Below are positions 4,365 through 32,521 of a stretch of 32,736 nucleotides of DNA, in pieces (position 1 is the stretch's first letter; the number at the start of each line of letters is the position of its first letter). The notes under the pieces are model-generated. The model searched no databases, was not told the origin of the DNA, and saw only the letters and a program-made list of their open reading frames with translations. The translations under genes and the position numbers were made by a program. Source of the DNA: an uncultured Ruminococcus sp. (GTDB taxonomy: Bacteria > Bacillota > Clostridia > Oscillospirales > Acutalibacteraceae); contig CADCON010000009.1 in assembly GCA_902803035.1 (NCBI GenBank), forward strand, positions 1 through 32,736, in the 5' to 3' direction.

Positions 4365-4440
4365 TCAAAGTGGAGTGTTCTGCTTCCCCTGTCAGCATCG
4401 CTGACGTGCCACAAAACAATCAAAGGAGCTGCTGCCAACA

Positions 4441-5505: not shown

Positions 5506-6080
5506 CGCCGCTGATCCTGACCATCAGCGGCGGTCCCCGCAAGGACGGCTGCTCCGCCCGGCTCCTCCGCCGCTTCACCGCCGGATGGCAGGCGGCATTC
5601 ATTCATTACGACGCCTATGAATGCCGTTTCGCTCCCTGCTCCGACTGCCGGTTCTGCCGGGAACACGAGGGCTGCGCCATCGACGATATGGACGGGTTCT
5701 TTGCCGACTTTGAACGGGCGGACGGCATTGTCTTCGCCTCCCCGGTCTACAATATGTCCTTCCCCGCCCCTATGAAGGCGGTCATCGACAGAATGCAGCG
5801 GTACTACAGCGCGCGCTTCTTCCTGGGCCAACGCCCTCCCATCGCCCGATTCCGCCCCGCCGCCCTGCTTCTTTCCGCAGGCTCACACGACGAAGACGGC
5901 AGTATCGTCGCTTCGCAGCTCCGGAAAATCTTCACCGTCACCAATTGTGAACTAACGTGCAGCGTCATTGTCAATAACACCGACCGCGGCGGCTGTGTGG
6001 CTGACAAGGAGAATGAAATCCGCTCTGCGGCCGCCCTGTTTGCCGCTTCAGTGGGTCTTATCACAAATTCATCACAATAA
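5502..6080 (+). CDS. Iron-sulfur flavoprotein / NADPH-dependent FMN reductase family protein
   Basis: ATGA overlap with the pyrB stop. ILTISGGPRKDGCS (flavodoxin-like FMN loop), compact CSDCRFCREHEGC = CX2CX2CX5C cluster motif, IVFASPVYNMSFPAPMKAVIDR typical of this family. Confidence 0.75.
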   Translation: MTPLILTISGGPRKDGCSARLLRRFTAGWQAAFIHYDAYECRFAPCSDCRFCREHEGCAIDDMDGFFADFERADGIVFASPVYNMSFPAPMKAVIDRMQRYYSARFFLGQRPPIARFRPAALLLSAGSHDEDGSIVASQLRKIFTVTNCELTCSVIVNNTDRGGCVADKENEIRSAAALFAASVGLITNSSQ

Positions 6081-6248: not shown

Positions 6249-6941
6249 ATGAGCAATACGAATAATTGCGGCGCGCTGAGGATTCTTGTCGCGGACGACG
6301 AGGACAGGATCAGAAAGCTGGTCGGCGATTTTCTTTCACGCGCGGGCTATGAAATAATTGAGGCCGCTGACGGCGGAGAAGCTCTCAGGCTGGCCAGAGA
6401 GGATCCCGTCCCCGATCTTGTGATCCTCGACGTCATGATGCCTGTGCTCGACGGCTGGACCGTTCTTTCGGAGATCCGTCGGAGCAGCAATATCCCGGTC
6501 ATCCTTCTCACCGCCAAGAGCACCGAGAATGACCAGCTCGGCGGATTCCGCCTGGGCGCGGACGATTACATCACCAAGCCCTTCTCCCCCAGCCTGCTTG
6601 TGGCAAGGGTGGAAGCCCTTCTCAAGCGCGGCGGCAAGCTCGGTGACTGCCGCAGATGCTGCGGCGACATCGTTGTCGATGAGGTCGCCCATGTAGCCTA
6701 TGTCGGCGACCATCCGCTGGAGCTTACTCCGAAGGAGTACAACCTCCTTCTCTTCTTTCTGGAAAACAAAGGCGTTGCCCTTTCACGCGAAAAGATTCTC
6801 AACGGCGTATGGAATTACGATTATTTCGGCGACCTGCGCACCGTTGACACCCACGTCAAGCAGCTCCGTTCCAAGCTGGGCGAATCCGGCAATCTGATCG
6901 TGACAGTGCGCGGCGTCGGTTACAGACTTGAGGTGAAATAA
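6249..6941 (+). CDS. OmpR-family response regulator
   Basis: ILVADDE, DLVILDVMMP (phospho-acceptor Asp), LTAKS, DDYITKPF, and a C-terminal winged helix LTPKEYNLL...VDTHVKQLRSKL...VRGVGYRL. Confidence 0.92.
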   Translation: MSNTNNCGALRILVADDEDRIRKLVGDFLSRAGYEIIEAADGGEALRLAREDPVPDLVILDVMMPVLDGWTVLSEIRRSSNIPVILLTAKSTENDQLGGFRLGADDYITKPFSPSLLVARVEALLKRGGKLGDCRRCCGDIVVDEVAHVAYVGDHPLELTPKEYNLLLFFLENKGVALSREKILNGVWNYDYFGDLRTVDTHVKQLRSKLGESGNLIVTVRGVGYRLEVK

Positions 6942-8533
6942 TGCGCCGGATCATTTCTTTGCGCATAAAATTCAAGGGTCTTAAAAGGCGTACCAGGAAT
7001 CTTCCGATACGGGTACGCCTTTTTCTCGTGTCATTCAGCGTCATTCTGCTGTTTCTCGCCATCATCTTTTTCACCAACGCGGTGCTTCTCAAGCCCTATT
7101 ACAATTACATGAAGGAGCAGAAGCTCAAATCTACATTGCAGCAGATCGCCCGGCTGGATTTCTCCGAAACGAATGATTCGGGATATACAGGCGAAAAAAA
7201 CATCATGAAGCTCCGGTCGCTGGAGGAAACAGGCAATCTCCATATTATCATCCTCGACGAAAATCTCAATTATTTCTACTATGACAGCGAGCCGCCGGTT
7301 CATATCGACCCCTTCAAAAGATACGAAGGCGCGCGGCAGCTTTTCAACAGCATTTACCAGATTACCAAAATCAAGGGCGACGGCACACTGGATTCCCCTT
7401 CCATCAGCCACCGCCTGAATCCTGACACCGACTCCGAATTTCTCAGCCTTTACGCCATTGTCCCCTCGGGTCAAGACGGCGAATCTCCCTATTATCACGT
7501 TCTCATCAATACATCGCTGACCGCCATCGATGACGCTGTGGCGGCATTCGACGATTACGCTATCGTCCTGGGCATTTTCGGAATGATTATCAGCGGTCTG
7601 ATTTCCATCATGCTCTGCTCGCGTTTTGTGCAGCCCATCCTCAAGATCAACGAAGCCGCCAGCAGTATGGCTAAGATGGATTTCAGCGTCAAGCTGGACA
7701 TTTCTTCCCATGACGAACTCGGCGAGCTGGCGCAGAATATCAATCACCTCGCTTCCGAGCTGGAAAGCAATATCGGACAGCTCCGCGTCGCCAACGCCCA
7801 GCTCATGGAGGATATCCGCGAGAAGGAAAAAATCGACCAGATGCGCCGCGAGCTTCTCTCCAATGTGTCCCATGAATTCAAGACCCCTCTCGCCATCATC
7901 ATGGGCTATGCCGAAGGGCTTCAGCTCAACATCAACAGCGATGAGAAGGATTATTATTGCAGCGTCATCAATGACGAGGCGGTCAAGCTCAACAGCCTTG
8001 CCGCGCGGCTTCTCGACCTCGCCGAACTGGAATCCGGCGCCATCATGGATATTTCCGAATTCGATCTCTCCGGACTTGCCGAAGCGCGCCTGAAAACCCT
8101 GTCCTATATCTTCGCCGAGGAAGACATCACCGCGCAGTTCCATTCCTCCGGAGACTGCACACTTTCCGCCGATTACGGCAGAATCGAGGAGGTCATCAAC
8201 AACCTTCTCTCCAACGCGCTCCACCACACGCCCAAGGGCGGCGTTATCCGGCTGGACGTTTCCGGCGGCGGCGAAGATGTCACCTGCACGGTCTTCAATT
8301 CCGGCAGCCATATCCCGGACGACAGCATCGACCGCATCTGGGAGAGCTTCTACAAGGTGGACAAGGCCCGCACCCGCAAATACGGCGGCTCCGGACTGGG
8401 TCTGAAAATCGTCAGCTCCATTGTCAACCTCCACGGCGGCAGCTATTGCGCGGAAAATACGGATGACGGCGTGGTCTTCCGGTTCACGCTTCCCAAAAAA
8501 CGCGTTTTGTCACAGCCGGAGGACAAGCAGTAA
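6941..8533 (+). CDS. Sensor histidine kinase (two TM helices, extracytoplasmic loop, HAMP, HisKA, HATPase_c)
   Basis: TAATG overlap with the response regulator. TM1 LFLVSFSVILLFLAIIFF and TM2 AIVLGIFGMIISGLISIML. H-box LLSNVSHEFKTPL, N-box NLLSNALHHTP, G-boxes FNSGSHIPDD and GGSGLGLKIV. Confidence 0.92.
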   Translation: MRRIISLRIKFKGLKRRTRNLPIRVRLFLVSFSVILLFLAIIFFTNAVLLKPYYNYMKEQKLKSTLQQIARLDFSETNDSGYTGEKNIMKLRSLEETGNLHIIILDENLNYFYYDSEPPVHIDPFKRYEGARQLFNSIYQITKIKGDGTLDSPSISHRLNPDTDSEFLSLYAIVPSGQDGESPYYHVLINTSLTAIDDAVAAFDDYAIVLGIFGMIISGLISIMLCSRFVQPILKINEAASSMAKMDFSVKLDISSHDELGELAQNINHLASELESNIGQLRVANAQLMEDIREKEKIDQMRRELLSNVSHEFKTPLAIIMGYAEGLQLNINSDEKDYYCSVINDEAVKLNSLAARLLDLAELESGAIMDISEFDLSGLAEARLKTLSYIFAEEDITAQFHSSGDCTLSADYGRIEEVINNLLSNALHHTPKGGVIRLDVSGGGEDVTCTVFNSGSHIPDDSIDRIWESFYKVDKARTRKYGGSGLGLKIVSSIVNLHGGSYCAENTDDGVVFRFTLPKKRVLSQPEDKQ

Positions 8534-8585
8534 TCGCTTTTCAATATAATTCTTCCGATTTTTGATAATTTTTAATAAAATCATC

Positions 8586-8614
8586 TTGTATTCAATTCTA
8601 TGATAGTGTATAAT
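8586..8614 (+). promoter_or_regulatory. Sigma-A-type promoter candidate for the PHP/ispF gene string
   Basis: TTGTAT (8586-8591), 17-nt spacer, TATAAT (8609-8614), in an AT-rich gap after the kinase gene. Confidence 0.5.
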
Positions 8615-8657
8615 GATAGAAGCCAACGGATTTTTATTCCGTCGGCGTACTGACTGA

Positions 8658-9521
8658 TTGATTTCACGGGAAGTGATTAGATTGGGAGCGGACTTACATT
8701 GTCACACCAACCGTTCCGACGGCTCCGACTCTCCGGAATTCGTCATTCGTATGGCCAAGCGGCTGGGGCTTTCAGCACTTGCCATTACCGACCATGATTA
8801 TTACGCCGGTGCCTACGACGCGGAGGGGCTGGGCAGGAAATTCGGATTGCGGGTCATCAACGGCGTTGAGGTGTCCACCTTCGATAAGAAACGCGGTCAC
8901 AAGGTGCATATTCTTTGCTACAACATCAAACATACCGACGCGGTGTCGGAGCTTCTCAGGCGGATCACCAGAAACCGCGCCGAAGCCGCCTTTGCCAGTC
9001 TGGAGAAGGCGATGAAGCTCTACCCCATTACCGAGGAAATGGTCATGGACGGCGTGAGCGAATCCGGATACGTCGGCAAGCAGCACATTCTTCTTGCCCT
9101 CATGAAGGCGGGCTACGCCTCGGAGATGTACGGCGAGCTTTATCACAAGCTCTTCAACCGTCGCAACGGCACCTGCGCCGTCCCTGTCGAGCAGGTGGAT
9201 TCCCTTGAGGCGATGGAGTATCTCAGGCAGTCGGGCGGCGTCATTATCATGGCGCATCCTTCGGTCTACGGCAGCATCGACACGCTTGACGACCTCATCA
9301 GGGCGGGCATTCACGGCATCGAACTGCATCATCCCCGGAATACGCCCGAACATATGAAGGTAATTCGCCAGGCGGCCGCCGAGCACAAGCTTCTTCTCAC
9401 CGGCGGCACCGATTTCCACGGTTATTTCGTGGAGGAAAACCGACGCAATCCCCTCGGCGCGTTTACCACTACGGATGAAATGCTCAGACGCTTGGACGAA
9501 CTCAGCGCAAAGCTTCAATAA
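8658..9521 (+). CDS. PHP-domain metal-dependent phosphoesterase (TrpH/YciV-like)
   Basis: ADLHCHTNRSDGS, LAITDHD, KVHILCY, IMAHP, GIELHH, TGGTDFHG: the PHP His/Asp motif series. The track start at 8658 is TTG. GTG 8673 or TTG 8682 are alternatives, so the 5' end is uncertain by up to 24 nt. Confidence 0.8.
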   Translation: MISREVIRLGADLHCHTNRSDGSDSPEFVIRMAKRLGLSALAITDHDYYAGAYDAEGLGRKFGLRVINGVEVSTFDKKRGHKVHILCYNIKHTDAVSELLRRITRNRAEAAFASLEKAMKLYPITEEMVMDGVSESGYVGKQHILLALMKAGYASEMYGELYHKLFNRRNGTCAVPVEQVDSLEAMEYLRQSGGVIIMAHPSVYGSIDTLDDLIRAGIHGIELHHPRNTPEHMKVIRQAAAEHKLLLTGGTDFHGYFVEENRRNPLGAFTTTDEMLRRLDELSAKLQ

Positions 9522-20030: not shown

Positions 20031-20070
20031 AAAAAACCTGCTTCCGTTTGCTTCGGAAACAGGTTTTTTC
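20031..20070. terminator. Bidirectional intrinsic terminator between convergent ecfT and the pilus operon
   Basis: AAAAAA-CCTGCTTCCG-tttgctt-CGGAAACAGG-TTTTTT: 9 of 10 bp stem (20037-20046 / 20054-20063), 7-nt loop, with A6 on one side and T6 on the other. Confidence 0.75.
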
Positions 20071-20145: not shown

Positions 20146-22062
20146 TCAGAACAGCACATACTGGGAGAAGATCACATTCGGAGACTGCGGACGGAATCCT
20201 GTCAGCTCGCAGCGGACGGTGACCCTCTTGCTGCCGCCTATGGTGCAGGTGAAAAGCGTGAGGTCGTAGTCCGAATGCTTCATTTCCTCAATGGCGTTGG
20301 GCACCAGCTCGGTGACTTCCCTCACCCTGTAGGTGAATACATCGCCATTCAGTGCCGTCACGGTAATCTCGTCGTTTTGGGTGAGATTCTTCAGCTTGCC
20401 GAAATGGGACTGGTAGTTATGCCCGCAGATCACCAGATCATCGGTGTACGCCGAGCCTGCATAGCGGCAGGGAGAACGGCGCAGTCCGGGATAGCTCCAC
20501 ACATTTCTGACCGGAAGCTCCAGCGAAAGCGAGGGAATTTCCAGAACCGCCGCGAAATCGGCTCCCTGATAAGTCTTCACAGGCATATCGGTGGTGACCG
20601 AACGGCTGTTGTCCGGCGCGATTCCGGACTGATCGGAGTTCCCGTTTCTGTCGGGAATGAACCGTACCACGCCGACGCATTCTTCCGCCACATCAGAGCC
20701 CGCTCTCATGTCGTCCCAGGAATTGTACAGCACAAGGCAGACCGCCGAGGATACCAGCACAATGCCCGCAAGAAGAACCAAGCCGCTCCGGGCGTCCTTC
20801 TTGTCGGATTTCTTCTTTCTGCCCATGAAGACGCCTGCCATGAATACCGCGAATCCCAGAATCGCCAGTACCGGCACGGGCCACCACAGCATTCCCGTCT
20901 GGGGAAGGATCGGGTCCTTCTTCTGTGTGTCGCTCCCGCCGGGTGAATTCGACGAGGTCGGCGTCTGTGAAGATCCGGAAGGGGTATTGGACGAGCCGGA
21001 GGGTGTATCCGACGAGCCGGAAGGTGTATCCGACGAGCCGGAAGGTGTATCCGACGAGCCGGAGGGTGTATCCGACGAGCCGGAGGGTGTATCCGATGAG
21101 CCGGAAGGTGTATCCGGCTCGTCTGAGGGTGTGCTGGAAGATTCCTCCGGCGGATCGTTGGCTCTCCAGATCGCGTAAACCGTGTATTCCCTGATATCGG
21201 GATAGAATGGCATGGTAGTATAGCCTTCGTCAGCCTCCGGGTCAATATTCCATCCCTCGAAGGTATAACCCGCCGCTTCCGGCTCAGGATCCATCGTCAG
21301 CCTGTAGCTGTTGTACTGCGACGCGCCGCTGCTTCCCCTGACATATCTGATGAGTTCGGTTTCCACCAGCAGCTTTCCGCTGTCAGCCTTGAATATTTCG
21401 GTAAAATCAGCCTGTGCATACGGCATATGCGTGACTGTCGCGCCGCCGATCCGCTCATTGTTGTCGCTGTAATGGATCACGTACTGTTTCGACATAAACT
21501 GCGCCTTGGGGACTACCGTGACGTCATAGCGCCACACGTCCTGCGGCTCAGTGCTCTGGGGAAGATCCCCGAAGAAGGTCGGAAGGCTTACCAGAAACGG
21601 TACGGAGGAATAGGTGTCCTCGTTGGCAAGCTCCAGCGGGTCGCTCGCCACCAGATATATGCCGGTGGAAAGGCGGTCGCCTTCCTCGCTCCTGAATTGA
21701 AGCTGTCCGTTGTCGCCGGTCACGCCCGTGCGCTTCGGCTCCACGCCGGATTCTTCGCTCCTCGCCAATGTGAGCATCTGGAGCGCGACGGTTGCCTGAT
21801 CCTGGTTCCGGTCATACACGCCAGCGAACGGCGCATTAAACCGGAAGGAGCCGGATTTGGTGACGTCGCCGACACGGTATAGATAGAAGGTCGCGCCTTC
21901 TATTGGCTCGTTATTATAGAGATATTGCAGCGTCAGCGTGGTATTTCTGGCTGTGTCTACAATTTCCATGGGATTCGGGTCCGCCGCCACCCGCAGCGCA
22001 AAGACGGAAAGCAGCAGCAGCAGCGACAGACTGATCGACACACTTCTTCTGATTTTTTTCAT
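20146..22062 (-). CDS. Pilin-like LPQTG surface protein fused in frame to a sortase catalytic domain
   Basis: Single 638-codon ORF. Signal peptide (aa 1-27). Pilin D1/Cna-B-like segment (ATFYLYRV, DNGQLQF, GIYLVAS, PFLVSLP). Pilin motif WRYDVTVVPK (K186). Listeria-Bacteroides-repeat-like GYTFEGW...YTVYAIW. (SDTPSGS)x7 stalk. LPQTG (aa 386-390, nt 20893-20907). TM MLWWPVPVLAILGFAVFMAGVFM. Basic GRKKKSDKKDAR. Second TM GLVLLAGIVLVSSAVCLVLY. Sortase domain with VICGHNY (His), LTLFTC (Cys606) and RVTVRC (Arg). Confidence 0.8.
   Translation of the reverse strand: MKKIRRSVSISLSLLLLLSVFALRVAADPNPMEIVDTARNTTLTLQYLYNNEPIEGATFYLYRVGDVTKSGSFRFNAPFAGVYDRNQDQATVALQMLTLARSEESGVEPKRTGVTGDNGQLQFRSEEGDRLSTGIYLVASDPLELANEDTYSSVPFLVSLPTFFGDLPQSTEPQDVWRYDVTVVPKAQFMSKQYVIHYSDNNERIGGATVTHMPYAQADFTEIFKADSGKLLVETELIRYVRGSSGASQYNSYRLTMDPEPEAAGYTFEGWNIDPEADEGYTTMPFYPDIREYTVYAIWRANDPPEESSSTPSDEPDTPSGSSDTPSGSSDTPSGSSDTPSGSSDTPSGSSDTPSGSSNTPSGSSQTPTSSNSPGGSDTQKKDPILPQTGMLWWPVPVLAILGFAVFMAGVFMGRKKKSDKKDARSGLVLLAGIVLVSSAVCLVLYNSWDDMRAGSDVAEECVGVVRFIPDRNGNSDQSGIAPDNSRSVTTDMPVKTYQGADFAAVLEIPSLSLELPVRNVWSYPGLRRSPCRYAGSAYTDDLVICGHNYQSHFGKLKNLTQNDEITVTALNGDVFTYRVREVTELVPNAIEEMKHSDYDLTLFTCTIGGSKRVTVRCELTGFRPQSPNVIFSQYVLF
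20975..21121 (-). repeat. Seven tandem 21-bp repeats encoding the (S-D-T-P-S-G-S)n stalk
   Basis: Plus-strand units CCGGA(A/G)GGTGTATCCGACGAG at 20975, 20996, 21017, 21038, 21059, 21080 and 21101. The inner units differ by 0-2 nt and the outer units are more diverged. Confidence 0.95.
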
Positions 22063-22101
22063 GCTTTTATCGCCTCTGTTTCTCTCATTTTTCTTTATGC
22101 T

Positions 22102-22917
22102 TTATGCTTTATGAATTTTTGTAGCCGCGTATGAAATCATTAGTATCAACAAAAGTCCCGCCAGCGCAATCATTACCGGGTTTCCGTAGAGCATATCCAC
22201 CAACGAGCTGTCCTCGGCAGCCTGCCGCGTTTCGTCGCCGGAGATCCGCCGTCCCCGCACAAGCAGCCTGTGAGTGTTGACCCCATAGGGCGTACAGGTG
22301 ACGAGCGTACAGTAATCCTGCCCCGGCTGAATTCTGAGGGCGTCGGTTTCGTCCGGCCTGACCACCAGAATGTTGTCAACCTCGTAGGTCAGCGTCCGTC
22401 CGAGCGTGGTCAGCGTGAATCTGTCGCCTTTTCTCAGCTTATCAAGATCGGTGAGCAGCTTGGCACTGGGAACCCCCGTGTGCCCCGTGAGGACGCAATG
22501 GGTGCTTTCGCCGCCCACGGGGAGCGAACTGGAGGGAAGATGCCCGATGTAGCTCTCCAGCGTCGCCGCGTCCGTGCCATGATACACCGGCAGGCGGCAG
22601 TTGATGGCGGGTATTTCCACATAAGACATCATACCGTCGCCGGAGATATTCAGCAAGTATTCGTAATCCGACGCGGAAACCGAGGTCGGTTCCCTGTCAA
22701 TGCCGGTGAGATACAATGCCCTGTTGAATTCCTCCGCGCGGCTGAGTTCCCTGTCGCAATCGCCGCTTTCCATGGCGTCCACATTGTCGGCGTACCGGCT
22801 GATGGCTTCGGAACTGCCGCGCTCGCTGAGGTAATTGCTGACTGACGGATAGAGGAACAGGGAGAGTCCCGTCAGTATTATCAGAGCAATAAGTATGGCG
22901 CTTATTCCTTTTTTCAT
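22102..22917 (-). CDS. srtC: Class C (pilus-assembly type) sortase
   Basis: N-terminal TM (ILIALIILTGLSLFLYP), VEIPAINCRLPVYHG, THCVLTGHTG (His), DYCTLVTCTPYGVNTHRLLVRGRR (TLVTC Cys and Arg), and a C-terminal second TM (VMIALAGLLLILMISY), a typical class C feature. AAGGAGAG Shine-Dalgarno upstream. Confidence 0.85.
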   Translation of the reverse strand: MKKGISAILIALIILTGLSLFLYPSVSNYLSERGSSEAISRYADNVDAMESGDCDRELSRAEEFNRALYLTGIDREPTSVSASDYEYLLNISGDGMMSYVEIPAINCRLPVYHGTDAATLESYIGHLPSSSLPVGGESTHCVLTGHTGVPSAKLLTDLDKLRKGDRFTLTTLGRTLTYEVDNILVVRPDETDALRIQPGQDYCTLVTCTPYGVNTHRLLVRGRRISGDETRQAAEDSSLVDMLYGNPVMIALAGLLLILMISYAATKIHKA

Positions 22918-22953
22918 GCAAAGACTCTCCTTGTCCGTGGGATTTGATTTGTT

Positions 22954-25900
22954 TTACTTCTTCAGATATTTCAAAAAGTCGGAGAAATCCGAGAGATCAA
23001 GATCCGCGTCCGCTGTGCGGAGCTTCCGCTTCCTGCTGTCTGACGGCATGAGCCTGAACGCAATGAGCATTCCGCCCGCGACGAGCAGGAAGAGTCCTGC
23101 CGCGATGAAAAGAAGGGTTCCGGATCCTCCTGTTCCAGGAAGCAGCGGACCGGTGTAGCGATTGGTGATTTTGAGCGAGCAGGTGGACTCATCGATTTCA
23201 TAGGAGGAATCGTAATTGTCCACGCTGACTTCGCTGATATGATACTGGTAGTAGACGATGGTTTCTTCCTCTCCGCTCACGATTCTGTCGGCTGCCTTTC
23301 TGTCCTTCAGAACCTTCTGCCACGCGGTCGTCCACGCGGAGGAATCGGAAGCCACAATGGTGATGGTTTCGGTCGCCACCACGGGCTTGCCCGGATCTTC
23401 CATCGTGAGCAGCGACGGCGGAACGGTGGAGCCGTAATTGAGCTGCCGGATGGTCAGGGTGATCTCTTCCGGACGGGAATCGAGGAAGATGAAGTCCTTC
23501 CACACCTTGTTGACCGTAATGTCAACCGGCGTGTCGCAAGGATCCTTGAGATCCACTGTGATGGGAGTGTCGCCCACAATGTTGTCATCAAGCGCCGTGT
23601 CGAGCATCAGAACCGCCATTGCTGGAGACACGTATGCCTTGAGCGGACGGCTCGCGCTGCCGGAAGCGTTATCCTCGGTCGCGTCCTTGAAATCCTCATG
23701 GACGGTGATATCGCCGAGATGCTCCACGATGTAGCGGTTGCAGGATTCGCCGTTGACGGTGACATTCTCGCTTTCCTTGTCGGCGATTCTGGCAGCGTTT
23801 TCCTTCTTGATCATGGTATATCCGCCATTGTCCGCACGGTAAACGCTGAAGCTGTTGCTGTAGGCTTCCGGTTCCCCGCCATCCGCCTCATGATAGCCTT
23901 CGAGGATTTCAATGGTCCTGCTGCGGGTGTTGGTGAAGCCTGTGAAGGGACCGACCTTGGAGGGCTGCCCTTCCCCGGCGGGAGGTGTGCCGCGGATCAC
24001 GTCGCACAGCTCGGTGCTGCAATAGTCGATCACACCCGCGTCATTATAGCCGATAAAGCCGCCGGCATAGCCCAGTTCGTCCACACCGTCCTCTTCGTCA
24101 GTCGCGCGTCCGGCGTAGATATTGTAGCCGTCCGGCACGCCCTTGACGGTGGAATGGGTGAATTCGGCGCGGTTGCCCTCGATCAGCGTAACCGAGATGT
24201 CGGGGGCGTTTTCCTCGTCGATTCCGTTCTCGTCGCAGGGAAGCTTGACGGTCGATGAGCCGATGGTGATGATCGCCGCGTCACGCGCGCCGTTGTATTG
24301 CTCGTCATTCTTGGAAAGCGCGACGCTGATCTTCAGACCAAAGAGGTTGACGGCAGCCACATTGCCCTCCGAGAACACCTGAAGCCCCAGAAGATCGCCG
24401 CTCGCGTTGAAGAAATCCGCGCGCTCCGCCTGATCGAGGTACAGTCCCCGCACCAGCACGTCGACCACCTTGACCAGAATGCCGGTCAGACCGGAGTCAA
24501 TCGCAATGTCAACCAGATAATTGAGCGCGGATCTGCCGGCAAAGCCGCCCGCGTTCTGGGTGCTCCACGCAAACTTGAATTGATCCACGGCGCATTCGTC
24601 AAAATGCGCCATATCGGCATAGCCCACAAAGCCTGCCGCGCAGGAGCCTTTCACGTCGCCGCTGTGCCCGTTGGCCACCTTCGTCTGGATATTGGTGGTT
24701 CTGGTGACAAAGCCGTTGGTAAAGCCGGTCACCGTACAATTCCGGAAGACCGAGCCGGAAACATTGAGCAGTTCCGCGCTGATATTCAGGTCGCCGAGAC
24801 CGAGTCCGTCGAGAGTCGTTTTCAGGGGATCTTCGGGATCCGGTTCCTCGCCTTCCTCGTTCTCTTCGGAGGGCTGAATGCCGAGGGAATCCTCGCCAAT
24901 GCCGCTGCTGGTGCCGCTGAGACCGACGAAGCCCGCCGCGTAATTGGGCGCCTGCGCAAAATTGAGAGTATCGACGGAGGAATTCTCCACCGTGCCGTTC
25001 ATCATCGCGCCGCCGAATCCGCCCGCCGCGCCGCTGAGATTGAGATTGCCGATCGAGCCACGCAGCGACTGGTCGTGAGCTACGATCATAATGCCGTCCT
25101 CAACGCCCGAAACCGTCGCGTGATAGATGTAGGTGCGGAAAATATCGAGTACGCTGATGTCTTCGGTCTGGAGCAGGTGAAGGATATTGGTATTGCCGTC
25201 CTTATCGCCCACTTCGGCGACGCTGCCGACATGAGCCAGTCCGAAGAAGCCGCCCGCGTAATAGGCCGCCGAAACGCCGCGCAGATCGCTGACAATCAGC
25301 GTGCGTTCGGGCGTATTCTTCGCTCCGAAGACCGTCGCTTCGGAGGAGCCGACAAAGCCACCGGCGCAATAGGCGTATTGCGTTTCGTTGTTGCTGTCCT
25401 TGTATTCGCCGTCCACGACAATGCCCCATTCGGTACCCGGAACGCCGGACACCTCCGCCTTGCCGATGACCGTAATGGTCGCGTCAAGTGCGTTCACAAG
25501 CTGCGAGGGATTGCTGATCACGGTGTCGAGAAGCCCCTGTATGAGGCCGTTGGAAGCGTCGCTGTCATCCGCGTTGGCAACGGAAGCCGCTGTGGTCTTG
25601 CCCGCAAAGCCGCCGATGCAGTTCCTGCCGGTGACGGTCTTGCAGTTTCTCACCCACACGCCAAGCTCCGGAATCTGAACCTCGCCGTCGACGCGTCCGT
25701 CTGCGCGGGTGCCGAGCTGGCCGCCGTAGCAGCCGCCGACAAAGCCGCCCGCCATACCGCAATCCACGCTGATGGTCTTGGTGACCGCGTCGTCGCCCTC
25801 GCCCGAAATGATTTTCTCGAAGGTGGGGAGTCCATCCGACCGCACAACCAGTCCGTTCTGGTAGCCGGTCACGCCCGATTCAAAGACAACCGGAGTGAGA

Positions 25901-28900
25901 ACGTCCGCCACCTTGAGAAGGTTATCCAGCGCGAGATCAAGACCCAGAATATTGACCTCACCGAATTCCACGAGTCCTTTGGTGATGACTTCGCCCGCGT
26001 AGCCGCCGGCCGCCCGGTAGGCACTGACAAGCTTGGCGTGGCTGGCGTTACCATAGCGTATGACGCCGCTGTGCATCGCGCCGGCATAACCGCCCGCGCA
26101 GCCGCCGTAGGTGGTGAAAACGCCGTCGTCGTATTCGTTACGGCCGGCAACCGCGTGATAGCCGTAGGTGAACTGGCTGAAGGCTTCCCTGAGCTGATCC
26201 TCATTGTCAAAAGTACCGAGAGCGATCAGGCTGCTCAGCTCGTTCGCTTCGGGAGCCGCGCTGCCCTTTGCCGCGACATAGGTGAGCCATTTATTCCATG
26301 TTTCCAGATCCATCTCTTCGAGAGGGCCGAAAACATTGGCGTTTTCGATGGTGGGATAGACAGCGTCGAGAGCCTCCAGCAGGTTATCCGCGCTGATGAT
26401 TCCGCCAAGAAGCGAAAGATTGCCCGATTTTGCCGTGCTGCCCGCTTCCATGAGACCCACATAGCCGCCGGCGTATTCCGCGCCGTAGACCGAGCGGATT
26501 CTCACCGCGTCACAGTCGCGCTTGTCGCCGGAATAATTCTCTTCTCCCAGCCACGGTTCGGAGCTGTTGCCCCAGATCTGTCCGCCGGAGCTGTGTCCGA
26601 CATAGCCGCCCGCAAAGCCGCGCGCCTGGGGCGTATTCACGCCGCGTCCGTCGGACAGGCTCTGCGCTCTGACCACACCGCCGCAGGGGATGCAGGTAGT
26701 AACACTGTTGTAAACCGTCGGAATGAACGCCTGCACCAGCTTCAGCGTGTCGCCGTCAATGATAGTGCTGACAATATCCGAAAGGGTGGCAGGCTCCTCC
26801 GGCTCTTCGGGATTCTCGTCTGCCTGCGGCGTATGCTCCACGTCCAGAATGTCCGCGACGTCGCCGGGCAGCATTTCGCCCGCGTAGCCGCCGGAAGCAA
26901 TCTCTCCGATGATGTAGGAGAATTTGTAGGAATTGCCGTCCTGAATATGCGCGCCGCCGATCTGACCGGCATAACCGCCCGCGTAGCCGAAGCCCGATGT
27001 GTCGTAGTTTTTGTCACCGAGATTCACGTGACTTGACGCGAGCACCGAGAAGCCGCCCGGCAGTCCGTAAACGTTGGAATGCTCGATGGTGGTCACCACC
27101 ACGTCCAGCCCGCTGAGAAGCTGCGTGCTGGTGAGCGATTCATGCATGAGGCTGATGCTGTCGCCCAGCGCGCGGGCGGAACCGACATTCATGCAGCCGA
27201 TGTAGCCGCCGGCGTATTCCGCGCCCGCGACCGAGTAGGGAACGGTGTCCCAGCCGGGGGTGAAATCCATGTATTCTGTACCGTCGCTGTCCTCCAGATT
27301 CGCGGGAATCTTGTCGGGGCACCGGCGCTTGAGACTCCTGACATGACAATGGGAAACCTCCATGCCGCTGCCATAGCCGATGTAGCCGCCGGCGTATCCC
27401 TTGGAGGAAGGCGAATTTTCATCGTCAATGTATGCCGCCAGAACGGTGAATCCTTTCTCCGAATACACGCCCGCGTACCAGAGCTTGGGCAGATAGGCGT
27501 TGGTAATGCTGGCAATGCCGGCGATGTCCACCTTGACATTCTTGTTGAGAAGTCCCAGACCGCTGCCGCCTTCACGCTCCAGCGCGCCGGAGAACACCTT
27601 GCCGCCAAAGCCGCCGGCGAATTTGCCGCCCTCCACATGGTCGATATTGTAGACTGCGTAGGGGCTGTTCTGCACCGCCTGCATTTCCTTGGAATCGATA
27701 TTCAGCGTGCCGCTGCGGAATTCGCCCGCGAAGCCGCCCGCCGCGTTGCCCTTGACATAGCCGCCGTCAAGGAAGGTGACGTCGCATCTTTCCAGCTTGG
27801 GAATGATGTCCAGTCCCAGTGAAATAAGCTGTCCGACGTCGAGAACCGTCACCGCCTGTTCGCCGACCGAACCTCCGCTGACTGTTTCATTGCCTACGCT
27901 GATGCCCGAAAGGTCGCCCGCGGCACAATGACCCACAAAGCCGCCTGATCTGCCGCAGCGCATATCCGAGGTGACGCTTCTGAGCCGGCTCACATGACAG
28001 TCGGTCACGGTCGCGCTGGTGCAGTCCCCGAAGAAGCCGCCCGCGCTGTAATCGGTCCGGCCGTTGTCATCCTCGTATTTTCCTGTCGCCTCCACCTCCA
28101 CCGCCAGACCGGAGGAACGATCGTTGACGCGGCAGTCTGTGATCGTGGTGTGAATGCCGTCGGTCATGCCGAGAAGGTCATTGATGGCGAGCAGATTGAT
28201 GCCCAGCAGCGTAAGGCTGAGTCCGTTGCCGCCCACAACCCTATCGGGGCCGGTCGTACCGGCAAAGCCGCCGGCGTGATTATTCGCCTTGACGAGCGTC
28301 ACGTTGTTGACATTCACTCTCGTGATGTCGCCGCCGATGGCAAAGCCCGCCGCGCCGCCGGCAAAATCGCCGGTGGCAATGACCCGGAATCCCGCGCGCT
28401 CTCCGGAGGAATTCTTCTCGCTGTCAATAGTGACGTCCTCCATGCGGAAGGCGAGATGGGATTGCAGACCCAACGTGCTGCCGAGCAGCGTGCCTGTGTT
28501 GGCGGAGCAGAGATAACCCGCGCCGCCGCCCGCAAGGGAGTATTTTCCGTCGATCGCGGGGTGATCGTTTTCGTCCTCCCCGCTGTCGCCTTCCCCGTCA
28601 TTGCCATCTGCGAACGCGCCCGAAGCGATGACCTCCACGAGCTGATCCACCAGAACCGGCTTCGCGGTGACCTCCGGAACCGGAATATTGCCGTCCCTGT
28701 AGCGGGAGAGATCCGCGATCGCGCCGGAATCGTCGATATATACGCCTTCGCCGTAGCCGATCAGACCGCCGGCGATGTTGCCTGAAGTGTGTACGACGAC
28801 CTTGCCCCTGATCTGGCATCCGAGAATGCCGGAATTGGACACGCCGCCCAGTTCGAGAAGTCCCTGGCTTCCCTCATTGCTGAGAAGATTGGTCAGCGCG

Positions 28901-31650
28901 GTCTTGACCGTGCTCAGAAGGTCCGCGTTGACCGGCAGATAATCGGGCAGGCAGAAGCCCGAACCGAGCTGCGCGCTGCCGGTAAATCCGCCCGCGCAGT
29001 CGCGGTGAGCGGTGATGCTGACCGTGCTGTCCGCGTCGATGACGCAATTGATGACGCTGCTGTTGGCCTGAATGCCCGCAAAGCCGCCCAGACTCCAGTT
29101 ACCGGTCAGGATAACAGAGCTGTTCCTTATCTGACACTCCCTGATCTCGCTCTGCGGATAGAGCGTTCCGACCGTAATGCCGAGACCGGAAAGGAGCTGC
29201 TGGATGATATCGTCGCGCGCGACGCCCACAAAGCCGCCGCCGCCGCGTTCCGCGTCCAGCGTGACCGACATATTCCTGACGGCCGACCAGGTCAGCTCCG
29301 TACCGCATATCGAACCGGCAAAGCCGCCCACGCCGTACCTTCCCGCGCCGAATGACAGTGTGCAGTTGTCAACCGTGCAGGCGTCGATCTTGGTTTCGAC
29401 ATATCCGGTGGGAATAATCTGATCAAGATGCAGCACATTCTGGGCGAGAATGGTCACCAGATCGCCCAGACCGATGCCGGGGATCAGATTGAGCACCCAT
29501 GTCAGACCGTCCACCACGCCGCCGAGAACGCTGTCAAGCGCGCTGTAGGTGAGGGTTCCCTGCACATGGCCCACAAAGCCGCCGCAGCCGACGATCTTGT
29601 GCATGTCGCTGCCCTCCTGCACGGTGACGGCTGACCGGACGTTCACCCGCTCCACATAGCAGTCGGAAACCTCCACCTTGCCCACGATCCTGCCCGCGAA
29701 CGCGCCTGTCGCCAGCGCGGTGGGATCCTTCTTGCGGGCATCGAGCAGATCCTGCAGCGTATCGCTGAGATTGATCGACTGCTCCCCGTTGCCGAGATTG
29801 ACGGCAAAATTCAGCAGTCCGTCGGCTACCCAGCCTAGAAGACTGGGCAGTCCTTTGAGAAGGATGCTGATGAAGGTTTCATTGGCGTCCACGTCGGTGC
29901 AGTTGTTGGTTACGGACGCGTCCCTGAGATGAATGTTCCTCACCACGGACGTTGTCCCCGACAGATCAGAATCGTTGTATTTCGCGCTGATCGTGCCGAA
30001 GAATCCGACGCCCATCTGCGAAGCGACGTCGAGTTTTCCGTCCTTCATGATCGGGTTGACGCTGAAATTCGAAATGACCGGCTTGCTGTCCGTGCTGAGA
30101 TTCAGCTCTGTCTTTTCGTCGTTCCACAGGTTGCCGCCGCCGTTCGGCTTCACGCCGTACATCGTGCCGGTAAACATGAGCGGCGCCCAGTCATAGCCGT
30201 CGAGATTGATGTTGCGGAATACGATGTAATTGGCGTCTGTGGCATATTCCAGACGGATGGTGTTATTCGACGGATCCGACAGATTGAGTTTGTTGGTCGC
30301 CGGATCAACCGTGGTGTAGATGGTGCCGCTCAGACCGGTTGTGTCATTGAGCGCGTGATAATTATTTCCTGTGCCGGCCGCGCTGTTGTAGCTGTCAAAC
30401 AGTCTGTCGTCGGTCACGTCCGCGTCGCCGGGATACACCAGCTCCGGGTCACCGTCCGGTTCCCACGGGTCTGTAAGGCGTGATCTCTTCACCTTCAGCT
30501 TGTAGACAGGCCCGTAGACCGCGACGTCTTCCCGGCTGCCGCTGACCGCAATGCCGAGGACTTCCTTTTCACGTCCCCTGTCAATGGCTTTGAGCTGCGC
30601 GGCCGTGCCGATGAGAATGTAATCGGTGCCGTTGATATTGGCTGTCACCTGACCCGCGTAATCCCTGCCGTCGCGGTCGCCGGCGTCGCGGTTGGCATAG
30701 GGCCAGAGAACCTTCGCCCCGCCGCGGATCGCAATGCTTTCGTCCCCCGGCTTCACCGGCGTGAATTCCGACGAAATCACATAGCGGTGGCCTTCGCTGT
30801 AGGTCAGGTATCCAAGCGATTCATCGCCCGGATAGATGAATTGTCCTGTGCCGAATAATTCGGTGCTCCAGTCGTTCGACATCACGGGAATCTCAGCCCT
30901 GTGGCTGTCCGCGAGCGTCATGAGCTGGAATCCGTTCTGCAGGTACACCGTGTCGCTCTCCACGTCGTACAACCGCTGGTTCAGCGCCCCTTTTGCGGGG
31001 CTTTCTTCCTCGCCGGGGTCAGGGTCCTCCCCGTCCCCGTCTTCCTCGCCGTCGCCGGCGTCTTCTCCGTCTCCGGAATTATCTCCGTCGTCGGTTTCCT
31101 CCGTCTTTCCGGCATTCTCCTCCATCTTCCTCGCGGAAGTGAATTCGCCGCTGAAGCCCGCCGGAACATTCCATTGTGTCTGCGCCGGAAGGGAAATGTC
31201 GCCTTCGAGATAATAAACCGCGTCCGCCGCGTACGTCACGGGTTCCCCATTCTGATCCGTGATCTGCGCGCCGCTGCCGACGGTTTCCTCAACGTCGTCC
31301 CCGGTCTTCAGCTCCGCGCCGCTGCCCGCAAGCTGAAGCTGGCGGAAATTGAAGATATGAATCATTCCGCCGCCGTAAAGCCGTTCGGCAGCTTCTTCAT
31401 ACGCCCTGATTGCTTCGGGCGAAGGCTGCTCTTCCGGCTCTTCCTGCGTGACAGGCGCATTGCCGTTCGTGCCGAGATCGACGCTGCCGGTGTAGGTGAT
31501 GTACTGGCCATCTCCGCCGTCCGCCGCGTCGCCTGAAGCGTAAACACTCACTGTCGTGTCCACTGATGTGGCAACCTGCTCCGCAATCGCGGTGATCAGC
31601 GATATGACCAGCAGCAGGGCGAGTGCTCTTGTGCTCCAATGCTTCTTCAT
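22954..31650 (-). CDS. Giant (2,898 aa) LPXTG-anchored surface protein with about 30 GLUG-like GGF/YxG modules and a C-terminal Cna-B-like domain
   Basis: GGGAGG 8 nt upstream of the ATG. Signal peptide MKKHWSTRALALLLVISLITAIA. Acidic D/E/G tract (aa 183-217). YIVFRNINLDGYDWAPLMFTGTMYG entry motif. Repeated AGGFAG / GGFVG / AGGYAG / AGGYIG motifs through roughly nt 24040-30020. Cna-B-like VDITVNKVWKD...YYQYHISEVSVDNY...ITNRY. LPGTG (nt 23128-23142), then TM and charged tail. Confidence 0.9.
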   Translation of the reverse strand: MKKHWSTRALALLLVISLITAIAEQVATSVDTTVSVYASGDAADGGDGQYITYTGSVDLGTNGNAPVTQEEPEEQPSPEAIRAYEEAAERLYGGGMIHIFNFRQLQLAGSGAELKTGDDVEETVGSGAQITDQNGEPVTYAADAVYYLEGDISLPAQTQWNVPAGFSGEFTSARKMEENAGKTEETDDGDNSGDGEDAGDGEEDGDGEDPDPGEEESPAKGALNQRLYDVESDTVYLQNGFQLMTLADSHRAEIPVMSNDWSTELFGTGQFIYPGDESLGYLTYSEGHRYVISSEFTPVKPGDESIAIRGGAKVLWPYANRDAGDRDGRDYAGQVTANINGTDYILIGTAAQLKAIDRGREKEVLGIAVSGSREDVAVYGPVYKLKVKRSRLTDPWEPDGDPELVYPGDADVTDDRLFDSYNSAAGTGNNYHALNDTTGLSGTIYTTVDPATNKLNLSDPSNNTIRLEYATDANYIVFRNINLDGYDWAPLMFTGTMYGVKPNGGGNLWNDEKTELNLSTDSKPVISNFSVNPIMKDGKLDVASQMGVGFFGTISAKYNDSDLSGTTSVVRNIHLRDASVTNNCTDVDANETFISILLKGLPSLLGWVADGLLNFAVNLGNGEQSINLSDTLQDLLDARKKDPTALATGAFAGRIVGKVEVSDCYVERVNVRSAVTVQEGSDMHKIVGCGGFVGHVQGTLTYSALDSVLGGVVDGLTWVLNLIPGIGLGDLVTILAQNVLHLDQIIPTGYVETKIDACTVDNCTLSFGAGRYGVGGFAGSICGTELTWSAVRNMSVTLDAERGGGGFVGVARDDIIQQLLSGLGITVGTLYPQSEIRECQIRNSSVILTGNWSLGGFAGIQANSSVINCVIDADSTVSITAHRDCAGGFTGSAQLGSGFCLPDYLPVNADLLSTVKTALTNLLSNEGSQGLLELGGVSNSGILGCQIRGKVVVHTSGNIAGGLIGYGEGVYIDDSGAIADLSRYRDGNIPVPEVTAKPVLVDQLVEVIASGAFADGNDGEGDSGEDENDHPAIDGKYSLAGGGAGYLCSANTGTLLGSTLGLQSHLAFRMEDVTIDSEKNSSGERAGFRVIATGDFAGGAAGFAIGGDITRVNVNNVTLVKANNHAGGFAGTTGPDRVVGGNGLSLTLLGINLLAINDLLGMTDGIHTTITDCRVNDRSSGLAVEVEATGKYEDDNGRTDYSAGGFFGDCTSATVTDCHVSRLRSVTSDMRCGRSGGFVGHCAAGDLSGISVGNETVSGGSVGEQAVTVLDVGQLISLGLDIIPKLERCDVTFLDGGYVKGNAAGGFAGEFRSGTLNIDSKEMQAVQNSPYAVYNIDHVEGGKFAGGFGGKVFSGALEREGGSGLGLLNKNVKVDIAGIASITNAYLPKLWYAGVYSEKGFTVLAAYIDDENSPSSKGYAGGYIGYGSGMEVSHCHVRSLKRRCPDKIPANLEDSDGTEYMDFTPGWDTVPYSVAGAEYAGGYIGCMNVGSARALGDSISLMHESLTSTQLLSGLDVVVTTIEHSNVYGLPGGFSVLASSHVNLGDKNYDTSGFGYAGGYAGQIGGAHIQDGNSYKFSYIIGEIASGGYAGEMLPGDVADILDVEHTPQADENPEEPEEPATLSDIVSTIIDGDTLKLVQAFIPTVYNSVTTCIPCGGVVRAQSLSDGRGVNTPQARGFAGGYVGHSSGGQIWGNSSEPWLGEENYSGDKRDCDAVRIRSVYGAEYAGGYVGLMEAGSTAKSGNLSLLGGIISADNLLEALDAVYPTIENANVFGPLEEMDLETWNKWLTYVAAKGSAAPEANELSSLIALGTFDNEDQLREAFSQFTYGYHAVAGRNEYDDGVFTTYGGCAGGYAGAMHSGVIRYGNASHAKLVSAYRAAGGYAGEVITKGLVEFGEVNILGLDLALDNLLKVADVLTPVVFESGVTGYQNGLVVRSDGLPTFEKIISGEGDDAVTKTISVDCGMAGGFVGGCYGGQLGTRADGRVDGEVQIPELGVWVRNCKTVTGRNCIGGFAGKTTAASVANADDSDASNGLIQGLLDTVISNPSQLVNALDATITVIGKAEVSGVPGTEWGIVVDGEYKDSNNETQYAYCAGGFVGSSEATVFGAKNTPERTLIVSDLRGVSAAYYAGGFFGLAHVGSVAEVGDKDGNTNILHLLQTEDISVLDIFRTYIYHATVSGVEDGIMIVAHDQSLRGSIGNLNLSGAAGGFGGAMMNGTVENSSVDTLNFAQAPNYAAGFVGLSGTSSGIGEDSLGIQPSEENEEGEEPDPEDPLKTTLDGLGLGDLNISAELLNVSGSVFRNCTVTGFTNGFVTRTTNIQTKVANGHSGDVKGSCAAGFVGYADMAHFDECAVDQFKFAWSTQNAGGFAGRSALNYLVDIAIDSGLTGILVKVVDVLVRGLYLDQAERADFFNASGDLLGLQVFSEGNVAAVNLFGLKISVALSKNDEQYNGARDAAIITIGSSTVKLPCDENGIDEENAPDISVTLIEGNRAEFTHSTVKGVPDGYNIYAGRATDEEDGVDELGYAGGFIGYNDAGVIDYCSTELCDVIRGTPPAGEGQPSKVGPFTGFTNTRSRTIEILEGYHEADGGEPEAYSNSFSVYRADNGGYTMIKKENAARIADKESENVTVNGESCNRYIVEHLGDITVHEDFKDATEDNASGSASRPLKAYVSPAMAVLMLDTALDDNIVGDTPITVDLKDPCDTPVDITVNKVWKDFIFLDSRPEEITLTIRQLNYGSTVPPSLLTMEDPGKPVVATETITIVASDSSAWTTAWQKVLKDRKAADRIVSGEEETIVYYQYHISEVSVDNYDSSYEIDESTCSLKITNRYTGPLLPGTGGSGTLLFIAAGLFLLVAGGMLIAFRLMPSDSRKRKLRTADADLDLSDFSDFLKYLKK

Positions 31651-31870
31651 GATTTGAACCTCCCATTCACATAAAATCGTGATGCATCATGCACTTCGCG
31701 GCGTTGTATTTTTTCCCCTCTGACAATCCCCCGCATTGAAAAAAAGAGTGAAAAAAAACAGACAATGAGGGACACTGAATGAGCGAATAATCAGTTTTCC
31801 ACAATTGTCCTGTTACGCTAAAACGTGGGGGTTAATGTCACGTCGCAATGCACAACCATCGCCAATATAT

Positions 31871-31898
31871 ATTATACATAAAGTATAGAAGAATGCAA
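31871..31898 (-). promoter_or_regulatory. Sigma-A-type promoter candidate for the pilus/adhesin operon
   Basis: Minus strand reads TTGCAT (31898-31893), 16-nt spacer, TATAAT (31876-31871). This would give a leader of about 215 nt before the ATG at 31650. It is the only good -35/-10 pair I found in the AT-rich gap. Confidence 0.4.
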
Positions 31899-32292
31899 TT
31901 GTAGAAAAATACAATTTTCACGAACTAAAGTCCATGCAAGATAGACATTCTATCTAGATTGTCTCATTACGAAAACGCCCGATTTCAGGGCAATTTACGA
32001 ATTATTCAGTAAAATTTCAGAACTCCATCACAATTGCATCTCAATTACATCTCAAGTTCCTCTCAAGCGGGATTTTTTCAATTTATTATCTACAATGACA
32101 GTCTAAAGTATTGTGACAAAATACATAGAAAAAAAGCCCTACGGACAACAGCACCGCATGAACGTATTTTCGTGCAATTAGCAGCGTAACAAGCCAATAA
32201 CGGAACGTCCGGACAGTCCGCAGCACAACCGCGCCTGCGGGCAAAAGAAAAAGCCCACCCGATTGAGTGAGCTTGGTTATTCGGTTGTATCA

Positions 32293-32521
32293 TCATCGGT
32301 CAGCGGTTTCTTTCAGTGGAATTTGAAGCCTGGCTATGAAATCCGCTTTGCTCACTCCGTATATTGCTTCATTGGCGTTTGCTCCGATGGAAGTGCCGCT
32401 TCGGATGATATGCTTTGACATGATGGACTCATGCTTTTCTTTGAGAAGATACTGATAAAGCCTGACAATACGGAAGGCGAATTTCAATGATTTTTACTAG
32501 AAGCGGGTGATCGTAGGACAT
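32293..32521 (-). pseudogene. Decayed four-helix-bundle protein gene (23S rRNA IVS protein / Avd-like family): frameshifted and C-terminally truncated
   Basis: AAGGAG, then 8 nt, then ATG at 32521, reading MSYDHPLLVK. The frame is lost in an A5 run (plus-strand TTTTT 32491-32495). Removing one A joins it to ...SLKFAFRIVRLYQYLLKEKHESIMSKHIIRSGTSIGANANEAIYGVSKADFIARLQIPLKET, the family core (RSGTSIGAN..EA...S..DFI.KL.I.LKE). The ORF then stops (TGATGA) about 40 aa short of family length. Confidence 0.65.

Follow-up and report, generated by a model that had tools for sequence, protein, structure and literature searches.

We report that a three-gene operon in an uncultured Ruminococcus sp., a Clostridia bacterium of gut or rumen (assembly GCA_902803035.1, contig CADCON010000009.1), is probably a pilus operon of the sortase-assembled kind, cut down to tip and base. 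The stretch analysed, called the window throughout, comprises positions 1 to 32,736 of that contig (32.7 kb); the operon occupies positions 20146–31650 on the minus strand, as do all of its features given below. It encodes a giant adhesin, a class C sortase (SrtC), and a protein in which a small basal-type pilin is fused to a second sortase. Its likely product, to judge from these genes, would be an adhesin-base heterodimer on the cell wall. By its gene content the locus appears to be a sortase-assembled pilus in kind, and would be distinguished by an operon-encoded anchoring sortase of no established class, by the joining of this enzyme to its own substrate, and by having lost the shaft.

The adhesin gene (22954–31650, 2898 aa, from its open reading frame (ORF) and translation) comes first. 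It is followed after 36 nt (22918–22953) by the SrtC gene (22102–22917, 271 aa, identified by NCBIfam and Pfam matches), and after a further 39 nt (22063–22101) by the fusion gene (20146–22062, 638 aa), read as a basal-type pilin with its dedicated sortase because it is conserved over its full length in protein clusters P0002–P0011 and homologous to adjacent overlapping gene pairs in 66–68 loci where pilin and sortase are split. Purine-rich boxes resembling Shine-Dalgarno sequences precede all three starts; the adhesin has GGAGG, SrtC has GGAGA, and the fusion has a weaker box, AGAGG. A terminator (hairpin and T-run, 20031–20070) lies between the fusion gene and ecfT/cbiQ, which run convergently, and is common to both. 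An earlier sequence-only reading of the window had described this gene order with the same gaps and terminator, a Shine-Dalgarno sequence for each gene, and a class C assignment for the middle gene; the ORFs and hairpin agree with it, each start has its box, and SrtC passes the curated class C model (NCBIfam class_C_sortase, NF033745) at 247 bits against a cutoff of 160.

Three features usual for sortase-assembled pili are found here. Two secreted subunits carry C-terminal LPXTG signals, LPGTG at residue 2837 of the adhesin and LPQTG at residue 386 of the small pilin, each followed by a transmembrane (TM) segment and basic residues. The cluster includes the class C sortase. The small pilin has an acceptor lysine, K186, in a motif of the WxxxVxVYPK type. 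A fourth feature, a major (backbone) pilin that would form the shaft, was found neither in the window nor in the ∼10 loci of its clade, and the window held no further sortase and no further LPXTG ORF.

A scan of one genome per species yielded 243 related loci; the best 80 were examined together with 4 metagenome loci (n=84), and of these 16 were fused and 68 split. The usual arrangement, in ∼70 loci, has five genes in the order large LPXTG tip, backbone pilin (450–750 aa), SrtC (1–2 class C sortases), small LPQTG pilin (250–450 aa) and small sortase (∼200–225 aa). Its carriers include Lachnospiraceae, Oscillospiraceae, Faecalibacterium prausnitzii and others, and the small sortase of split loci is homologous to the fused module. 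By contrast with this five-gene order, adhesin leads directly to SrtC and then to the fusion, without a backbone gene, in ∼10 clade loci (window, L001, L004, L005, L006, L009–L012, L085), the relatives having ∼50–58% identity to the window. This synteny bears out the earlier statement that a conventional backbone pilin is missing: in the closest relative (58% identity) no pilin was found within 10 kb on either side, and in the window none was found 20 kb downstream or 1 kb upstream of the operon. Flanking genes differ between relatives, suggesting that the three genes act as one unit.

Two lineages preserve what may be the earlier state. Sister lineage L013 has a homologue of the giant adhesin, then a 487-aa major pilin (SpaH/EbpB, 110.7 bits, cutoff 95), SrtC and the fusion. 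In Coprococcus comes (L088:4135–15375 and L089) a giant homologue with 37% identity precedes a 519-aa backbone, SrtC and a 243-aa small pilin. More generally, adhesin homologues of 2650–2930 aa are the first gene of pilus operons, including that of C. comes, where the backbone pilin is next. Since giant homologues precede a backbone in both lineages, we interpret the giant family as one of tip position, and the backbone loss as derived and stable in the window clade.

The 638-aa fused protein reads, in order, as signal peptide, D1-like pilin domain, List_Bact_rpt domain, Ser/Pro stalk, LPQTG, first TM segment (TM1), RKKK loop, second TM segment (TM2) and sortase. Its pilin D1-type domain (residues 36–192, 21487–21957) scored 22 bits with Pfam GramPos_pilinD1, just under the cutoff of 23.1, and was matched by the NCBIfam SpaH/EbpB model (positions 73–209). 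A profile of the D1 family (A3) found N-terminal domains of major pilins, with SpaD at 1e-14 and Clostridium perfringens CppA at 1.5e-14, and also SpaA and FimA; its match to the basal pilin EbpB was far weaker, at E=0.0015 only. K186, which is predicted to be the acceptor lysine, lies in WRYDVTVVPK at the end of the D1 domain and has its codon at 21505–21507. This column is lysine in all 77 of the 77 aligned small LPQTG pilins, fused or split, within a motif WxYxVxAxPK, and the profile alignment places K186 on the lysine of WNYNVVAYPK in SpaD and of WNYDVTINPK in CppA.

The sequence-only reading had named K186 as the one pilin-motif lysine of the locus, and a scan of the adhesin is in accord, having found two PK dipeptides, neither in a pilin-motif context. 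That reading had also taken the small protein for a basal pilin, and what speaks for it is the protein's homology to the small LPQTG pilin found next after SrtC, where a basal pilin is expected, in ∼70 loci, as do its traits of a small ancillary subunit with one D1 domain bearing K186 and a sorting signal unlike that of tip and shaft. Its description as a single pilin domain with a Pro/Ser stalk needs amending: the D1 domain and the stalk are there, but D1 is not the only folded domain, because a Listeria-Bacteroides repeat domain resembling the InlB B-repeat is also present (residues 252–302, 21157–21309; TIGR02543, 21.0 bits, cutoff 20.95). The same region matched Pfam Flg_new weakly and InlB (2y5p) at E=0.12. 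The Ser/Pro-rich stalk (residues 303–380, 20923–21156) contains a 21-nt tandem repeat at 20975–21116, in 6.8 copies with 93% matches, encoding SSDTPSG. Stalk length is very different among relatives, P0010 having none, so the region is probably variable in length. An AlphaFold2 (AF2) model of the whole fusion was poor (predicted local distance difference test, pLDDT, of 57, from an 11-sequence alignment); its Foldseek matches to SpaA, SpaD, EbpC and EbpB are therefore weak support.

Two distinct sorting signals segregate within the same loci. Small pilins carry LPQTGxLWWPVPVLAxxG (n=78), with the L, W and P after the motif at ∼100%, and tip and backbone proteins carry NxxGxxLPxTGGxGTxxFY with variable X (n=96). 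The LPGTG of the window adhesin (23128–23142, in the context NRYTGPLLPGTGGSGTLLF) is of the tip/backbone, or SrtC, type. No other indirect evidence speaks as strongly as this pairing for SrtC handling the adhesin and the fused sortase the small pilin. C. comes, a seeming counter-example, fits the two-signal pattern: it has no small sortase, and its small pilin has VKTGD instead of LPQTG. That C. comes pilin, with no small sortase gene downstream and with VKTGD at its end, retains the lysine motif as ...EYNVTIEPK.

SrtC also matched Pfam Sortase, at 1.6e-25. It has residues H146 and C208 and TM segments at both its N- and C-terminal ends, the C-terminal one being a typical class C feature.

The adhesin is predicted to be the pilus tip subunit and the SrtC substrate. 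It starts with a signal peptide, has many GGF/YxG repeats, and after its LPGTG has a TM segment with a charged tail. The repeats are Pfam GLUG motifs (26.9 bits, cutoff 20.5); Pfam found nothing else but a weak Cna_B match, at 16.9 bits against a cutoff of 22.3, marking a CnaB-like C-terminal domain (residues 2711–2830, 23161–23520). Homologues of the adhesin have a precomputed PF05738 match, and a PDB sequence search with the adhesin gave no match. The TM segment and long cytoplasmic tail span 22957–23127 and close with LDLSDFSDFLKYLKK. This tail, of ∼35 aa, has an end motif (E/D)LD(L/I)S(D/N)FSDF(L/F/I)K..KK, which is kept at the C-termini in L001, L004–L006 and L009–L011 and absent from the L013 homologue. 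Tails of sorting signals are usually short and basic; a conserved motif on the fragment that would be left in the membrane, unlike such tails, suggests an additional role.

In the fusion, LPQTG (20893–20907) and TM1 together form the sorting signal (20821–20907). TM1 itself is conserved, LWWPVPVLAILGF... (20821–20889), and after a cytoplasmic RKKKSDKKDARS loop comes TM2 (20716–20784), the membrane anchor of the sortase module. The catalytic domain (residues 496–624, 20191–20577) matched Pfam Sortase PF04203 at 1.7e-15 and contains H548 (20419–20421), C606 (20245–20247) and R617 (20212–20214), a triad invariant among the aligned relatives. The predicted topology is self-consistent, with LPQTG and the catalytic domain both extracellular. 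A module-only AF2 model was good (pLDDT 87, predicted template modelling score 0.81), with helices at module residues 15–36 and 44–86 (pLDDT 82–96), and in this model the module has the eight-stranded beta-barrel and His/Cys/Arg triad of the sortase superfamily.

Placing the fused sortase in a class failed by NCBIfam, by PDB sequence and profile searches, and by fold search. Its scores against class models were 30 bits for C (cutoff 160), 23 for D (165), 26 for E (160) and 27 for GN (158), and no class A or class B model was hit at E≤0.01. Free-standing relatives and other fusions behaved likewise, all at 20–48 bits against NCBI class cutoffs of 140–165, and from these sub-cutoff scores against all NCBI class models we take the module to be a sortase of no curated class. 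Foldseek with the module model gave class A, C, D and E structures all at probability 1.0, favouring none. A profile of the module family matched the Ebp class C sortase best among structures (1e-15), followed by Bacillus anthracis SrtA and others.

The module family is large. It numbers 3,261 representative clusters in an exhaustive HMMER search over 1.84 billion representative proteins, and one member was on at least 1,000 contigs, with F. prausnitzii records among them. Public records call these relatives 'sortase' or 'sortase domain-containing protein' only, and the proteins of the arrangement as a whole are at present annotated just as 'sortase' or 'hypothetical protein'. Among the best 150 module relatives, 37 were fusions whose match starts at LPQTG, a share that over-represents fusions, since they align with more of the query and so rise to the top of the ranking.

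The LPQTG-TM-TM-sortase module was also seen on passengers that are not pilins: P0275 (1553 aa), P0355 (1104 aa) and P0276 (835 aa). The 1,553-aa protein is of the leucine-rich repeat (LRR), BspA-like kind and has Flg_new repeats. A second of these fusions has a VWA domain, and in it a peptidoglycan-binding-like extension follows the sortase. In these non-pilin fusions the TM motif after LPQTG departs from LWWPVP. The presence of LRR and VWA passengers on the same module suggests a general self-anchoring role.

As to its origin, the fusion probably arose when overlapping, translationally coupled genes for a basal LPQTG pilin and a small sortase were joined into one frame. In 53 of the 66 split pairs, the sortase start candidate nearest the pilin stop overlaps that stop by 1–20 nt, so a small indel would join both frames. 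In the window clade the backbone pilin gene would also have been lost. An exact look-up did not find the window's fusion protein on record in public assemblies; 10 other protein clusters (P0002–P0011) keep the fusion from one end to the other at ∼50% identity, with K186, LPQTG (one LAQTG) and the H/C/R residues invariant, so it is no chance pattern. In a neighbour-joining tree of sortase modules, made without bootstrap, fused forms fall at at least three positions: the window clade with L013, L014 alone, and Enterococcus columbae. By this tree the pilin and sortase genes appear to have fused at least three times, making the fusion a recurrent architecture, not one unique to the window locus. 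Another locus, L070, has at 6838–9417 an 859-aa ORF that joins a class C sortase domain to an N-terminal portion resembling a pilin, in which LPGTG is at residue 482; the ORF is possibly another type of substrate-sortase fusion, or else an artefact of a frameshift.

We propose the following course of assembly. All three proteins would be secreted by Sec and then held in the membrane. SrtC would cut the adhesin at LPGT|G and carry it as a thioester, which the epsilon-amine of K186 in the small-pilin D1 domain would attack, forming a Thr-Lys isopeptide bond. The fusion would be set in the membrane with LPQTG outside, followed by TM1, the cytoplasmic basic loop, TM2, and the catalytic domain again outside. 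Its LPQT|G could then be cut by the sortase domain of the same chain (in cis) or of a neighbouring molecule. Finally, lipid II would resolve the acyl-enzyme, leaving the heterodimer on peptidoglycan by way of the Ser/Pro stalk, with no polymerised shaft. Transfer of the basal pilin to peptidoglycan by a non-polymerising sortase is suggested by the dedicated or fused sortase and by the non-pilin passengers. The division of work already proposed in the sequence-only reading, with SrtC joining adhesin to small pilin and the fused sortase anchoring the pair, comes out favourably in those parts that sequence can address, namely an SrtC-type signal on the adhesin and a distinct one on the pilin.

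Several points weigh against this reading. We infer the catalytic steps, the choice between cis and trans action, and the final product from the genes. The module AF2 model left LPQTG undocked in the active site, with pLDDT ∼50 for the first 10 module residues, and so is silent on cis versus trans action. A simple pattern search of the window SrtC found no DP[FWY] lid motif; its lid, if present, is probably non-canonical. In one lineage (L001–L003/L086–L087) SrtC consists of residues 158–268 only, without TM segments and without the catalytic His (L001:9623–9976; L003:5394–5747; L086:18674–19027; L087:18674–19027). The adhesin (2,859–2,887 aa) and fusion (611–621 aa) of that lineage are intact on contigs from several samples, so either SrtC is dispensable there or the locus is decaying. 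The small pilin has the lysine and the sorting signal that a polymer would need, and might in principle form one. A backbone pilin gene may also lie elsewhere in the genome, 32.7 kb of which is covered here.

Four other readings were weighed. If the small pilin served as both shaft and base, the fused sortase or SrtC would link the LPQT of each copy to K186 in its neighbour, giving a short homopolymer capped by the adhesin. The two polymerisation elements, pilin-motif lysine and sorting signal, are indeed on one protein, whose D1 domain is closer to those of the major pilins SpaD, CppA and SpaA than to that of basal EbpB, and basal pilins reportedly also occur, in some cases, along the shaft (PMC8244301). 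Yet in ∼70 loci the small LPQTG pilin stands beside a separate 450–750 aa major pilin, which marks it as ancestrally an ancillary subunit. It has a single pilin domain, and its ∼80-aa disordered Ser/Pro stalk would recur in each repeat; moreover its sorting signal is unlike the SrtC type, and the same sortase module is used by passengers that are not pilins. We consider such a homopolymer unlikely. An alternative with no covalent link between tip and base, in which SrtC or an unlinked housekeeping sortase attaches the adhesin to peptidoglycan, the small pilin is separately self-anchored and K186 is vestigial, would suit the lineage with a shortened SrtC and an intact adhesin, and also the module's apparent ability to anchor non-pilin passengers. 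It sits poorly with the invariance of K186 and WxYxVxxxPK in the backbone-less clade despite ∼50% overall identity, and with an adhesin that keeps its SrtC-type signal alongside an SrtC intact in 9 of 10 clade lineages; we judge it improbable.

An ordinary three-pilin pilus, its shaft still made from a backbone gene elsewhere, gains some room from the extent of the data, which take in 32.7 kb of this genome and less than the complete genomes of the relatives. Where a backbone is present in related loci, though, it is always between the tip gene and SrtC, an interval of 36 nt here; the searched surroundings of the operon in the window and in its closest relative, described above, held no pilin, and the flanks differ among relatives while the three genes stay together as one unit. 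We regard a distant backbone as very doubtful. As for the fusion being an assembly or frameshift artefact or a decaying pseudogene, fusions known from a single metagenome-assembled genome (such as L014) could be sequencing errors, and a one-base error could join split genes that overlap. But the fused ORF has been met repeatedly, in separate samples and species, with its junction conserved, is present in the isolate genome of E. columbae (WP_016183573.1), and accounts for the 37 of the best 150 representative clusters mentioned above. Given this conservation across species and samples we reject an artefactual fusion, which is almost certainly not the explanation.

Returning to the reading of a pilus reduced to tip and base, a broader proposal can be built on it, which we put forward tentatively and with less than even confidence. 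The module and its ∼200-aa free-standing relatives may be a sortase class not yet described, specialised in fixing the base of the pilus, one that would read LPQTGxLWWPVP, an extended signal lying partly within the membrane, through pairing of the substrate TM with the enzyme TM. Its fused forms would act in cis, one substrate per enzyme, and the window clade would build a shaftless two-subunit 'pilus'.

Work on sortase-assembled pili has centred on pathogens and lactobacilli, in which anchoring of the base is attributed to an unlinked housekeeping sortase. Like the SpaABC pilus of Corynebacterium diphtheriae and the SpaCBA pilus of Lacticaseibacillus (L.) rhamnosus GG, the window locus has LPXTG pilins, a class C sortase, an acceptor lysine in a WxxxVxVYPK-type motif and a separate basal signal (LPQTG in GG-SpaB), and the D1 domain of its small pilin is homologous to SpaD and SpaA. 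Unlike them, it has no backbone pilin, its tip is a 2,898-aa GLUG-repeat protein, and its operon carries the anchoring sortase as a fusion with the basal pilin, theirs being an unlinked housekeeping enzyme of class A or E. In a 2011 account by Chang et al. (Molecular Microbiology 79:1236, cited in PMC3708956), C. diphtheriae reportedly displays a shaftless SpaC-SpaB heterodimer, with the tip adhesin on a lysine of the basal pilin. This is the product proposed here. The C. diphtheriae heterodimer is made beside full pili from a locus with a shaft pilin, whereas in the window locus, its shaft gene lost, it would be the sole product.

Other parts of the system have partial precedents. In L. rhamnosus GG, LPQTG marks the basal pilin SpaB, which is handled by a sortase not of class C (PMC8244301), an accepted sharing of tasks with which the assembly proposed here agrees. 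C. perfringens SrtD (PDB 4D70) prefers LPQTGS and is encoded beside its LPQTGS substrate (PMC4498605). This small clostridial enzyme is the nearest characterised one, but a distant one, the module profile matching 4d70 at 3e-8 and the Ebp class C sortase at 1e-15; unlike the window module, SrtD is unfused, has no known pilus role, and has a substrate without LWWPVP. The five-gene loci of Clostridia (such as that of F. prausnitzii APC923/61-1, L048) have directly homologous SrtC, small LPQTG pilin and small sortase, and differ in keeping a ∼500-aa backbone, in using another tip protein, and in having small pilin and sortase as separate, overlapping genes; their annotations are 'class C sortase', 'sortase' and 'isopeptide-forming fimbrial protein' only. 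Self-cleaving sortase fusions engineered for protein purification hold enzyme and motif on one polypeptide and undergo intramolecular cleavage (PMC2901362), so action in cis is chemically feasible. Those artificial proteins are soluble and ordered sortase-LPXTG-cargo, whereas the window protein is set in the membrane and ordered cargo-LPQTG-TM-TM-sortase. Our literature searches found engineered fusions only, and no natural pilin-sortase fusion; nor did they find a description of an LPQTG-dedicated pilus sortase in Clostridia, GG-SpaB and C. perfringens SrtD being nearest. The pilin-sortase fusion turns up in a large number of public sequences and seems never to have been studied.

Many gut and rumen Clostridia, by this survey, encode a second, dedicated sortase beside the basal pilin, with its own invariant sorting signal. 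A natural substrate-enzyme fusion offers a simple system for the study of sortase substrate choice, including a possible contribution from membrane helices, and would be useful for dissecting the division of work between polymerising and anchoring sortases and the shaftless display of a 300-kDa adhesin. A self-processing, LPQTG-specific sortase could also serve in protein ligation.

Upstream of the operon, an AT-rich non-coding stretch of ∼600 nt (31651–32250, minus strand), a putative leader and promoter region, lies 5' of the adhesin gene, its far boundary being the terminator (32251–32274) of the preceding, broken four-helix-bundle gene. Rfam gave no family in this leader or in the rest of the window, and a consensus promoter scan of 31651–32250 found no convincing minus-strand promoter. 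The other genes of the window are housekeeping: pyrB, a two-component system, ispF, a cysteine desulfurase gene, ruvCAB, and genes of an energy-coupling factor (ECF) transporter. With such flanks (pyrB, ispF, ruvCAB and so on), we reject a phage or plasmid setting for the window operon. In the lineage with the truncated SrtC, the L086 operon has genes for a phage holin and a CHAP endolysin to one side of it and integrase and repressor genes to the other (4376–5599; 24361–26177), which suggests prophage remnants nearby. Just upstream of the window operon, at 32290–32520 on the minus strand, are two short ORFs, one with ...RSGTSIGANANEA...DFIARL..., that look like fragments of a disrupted gene for a four-helix-bundle ('23S rRNA intervening sequence') protein.

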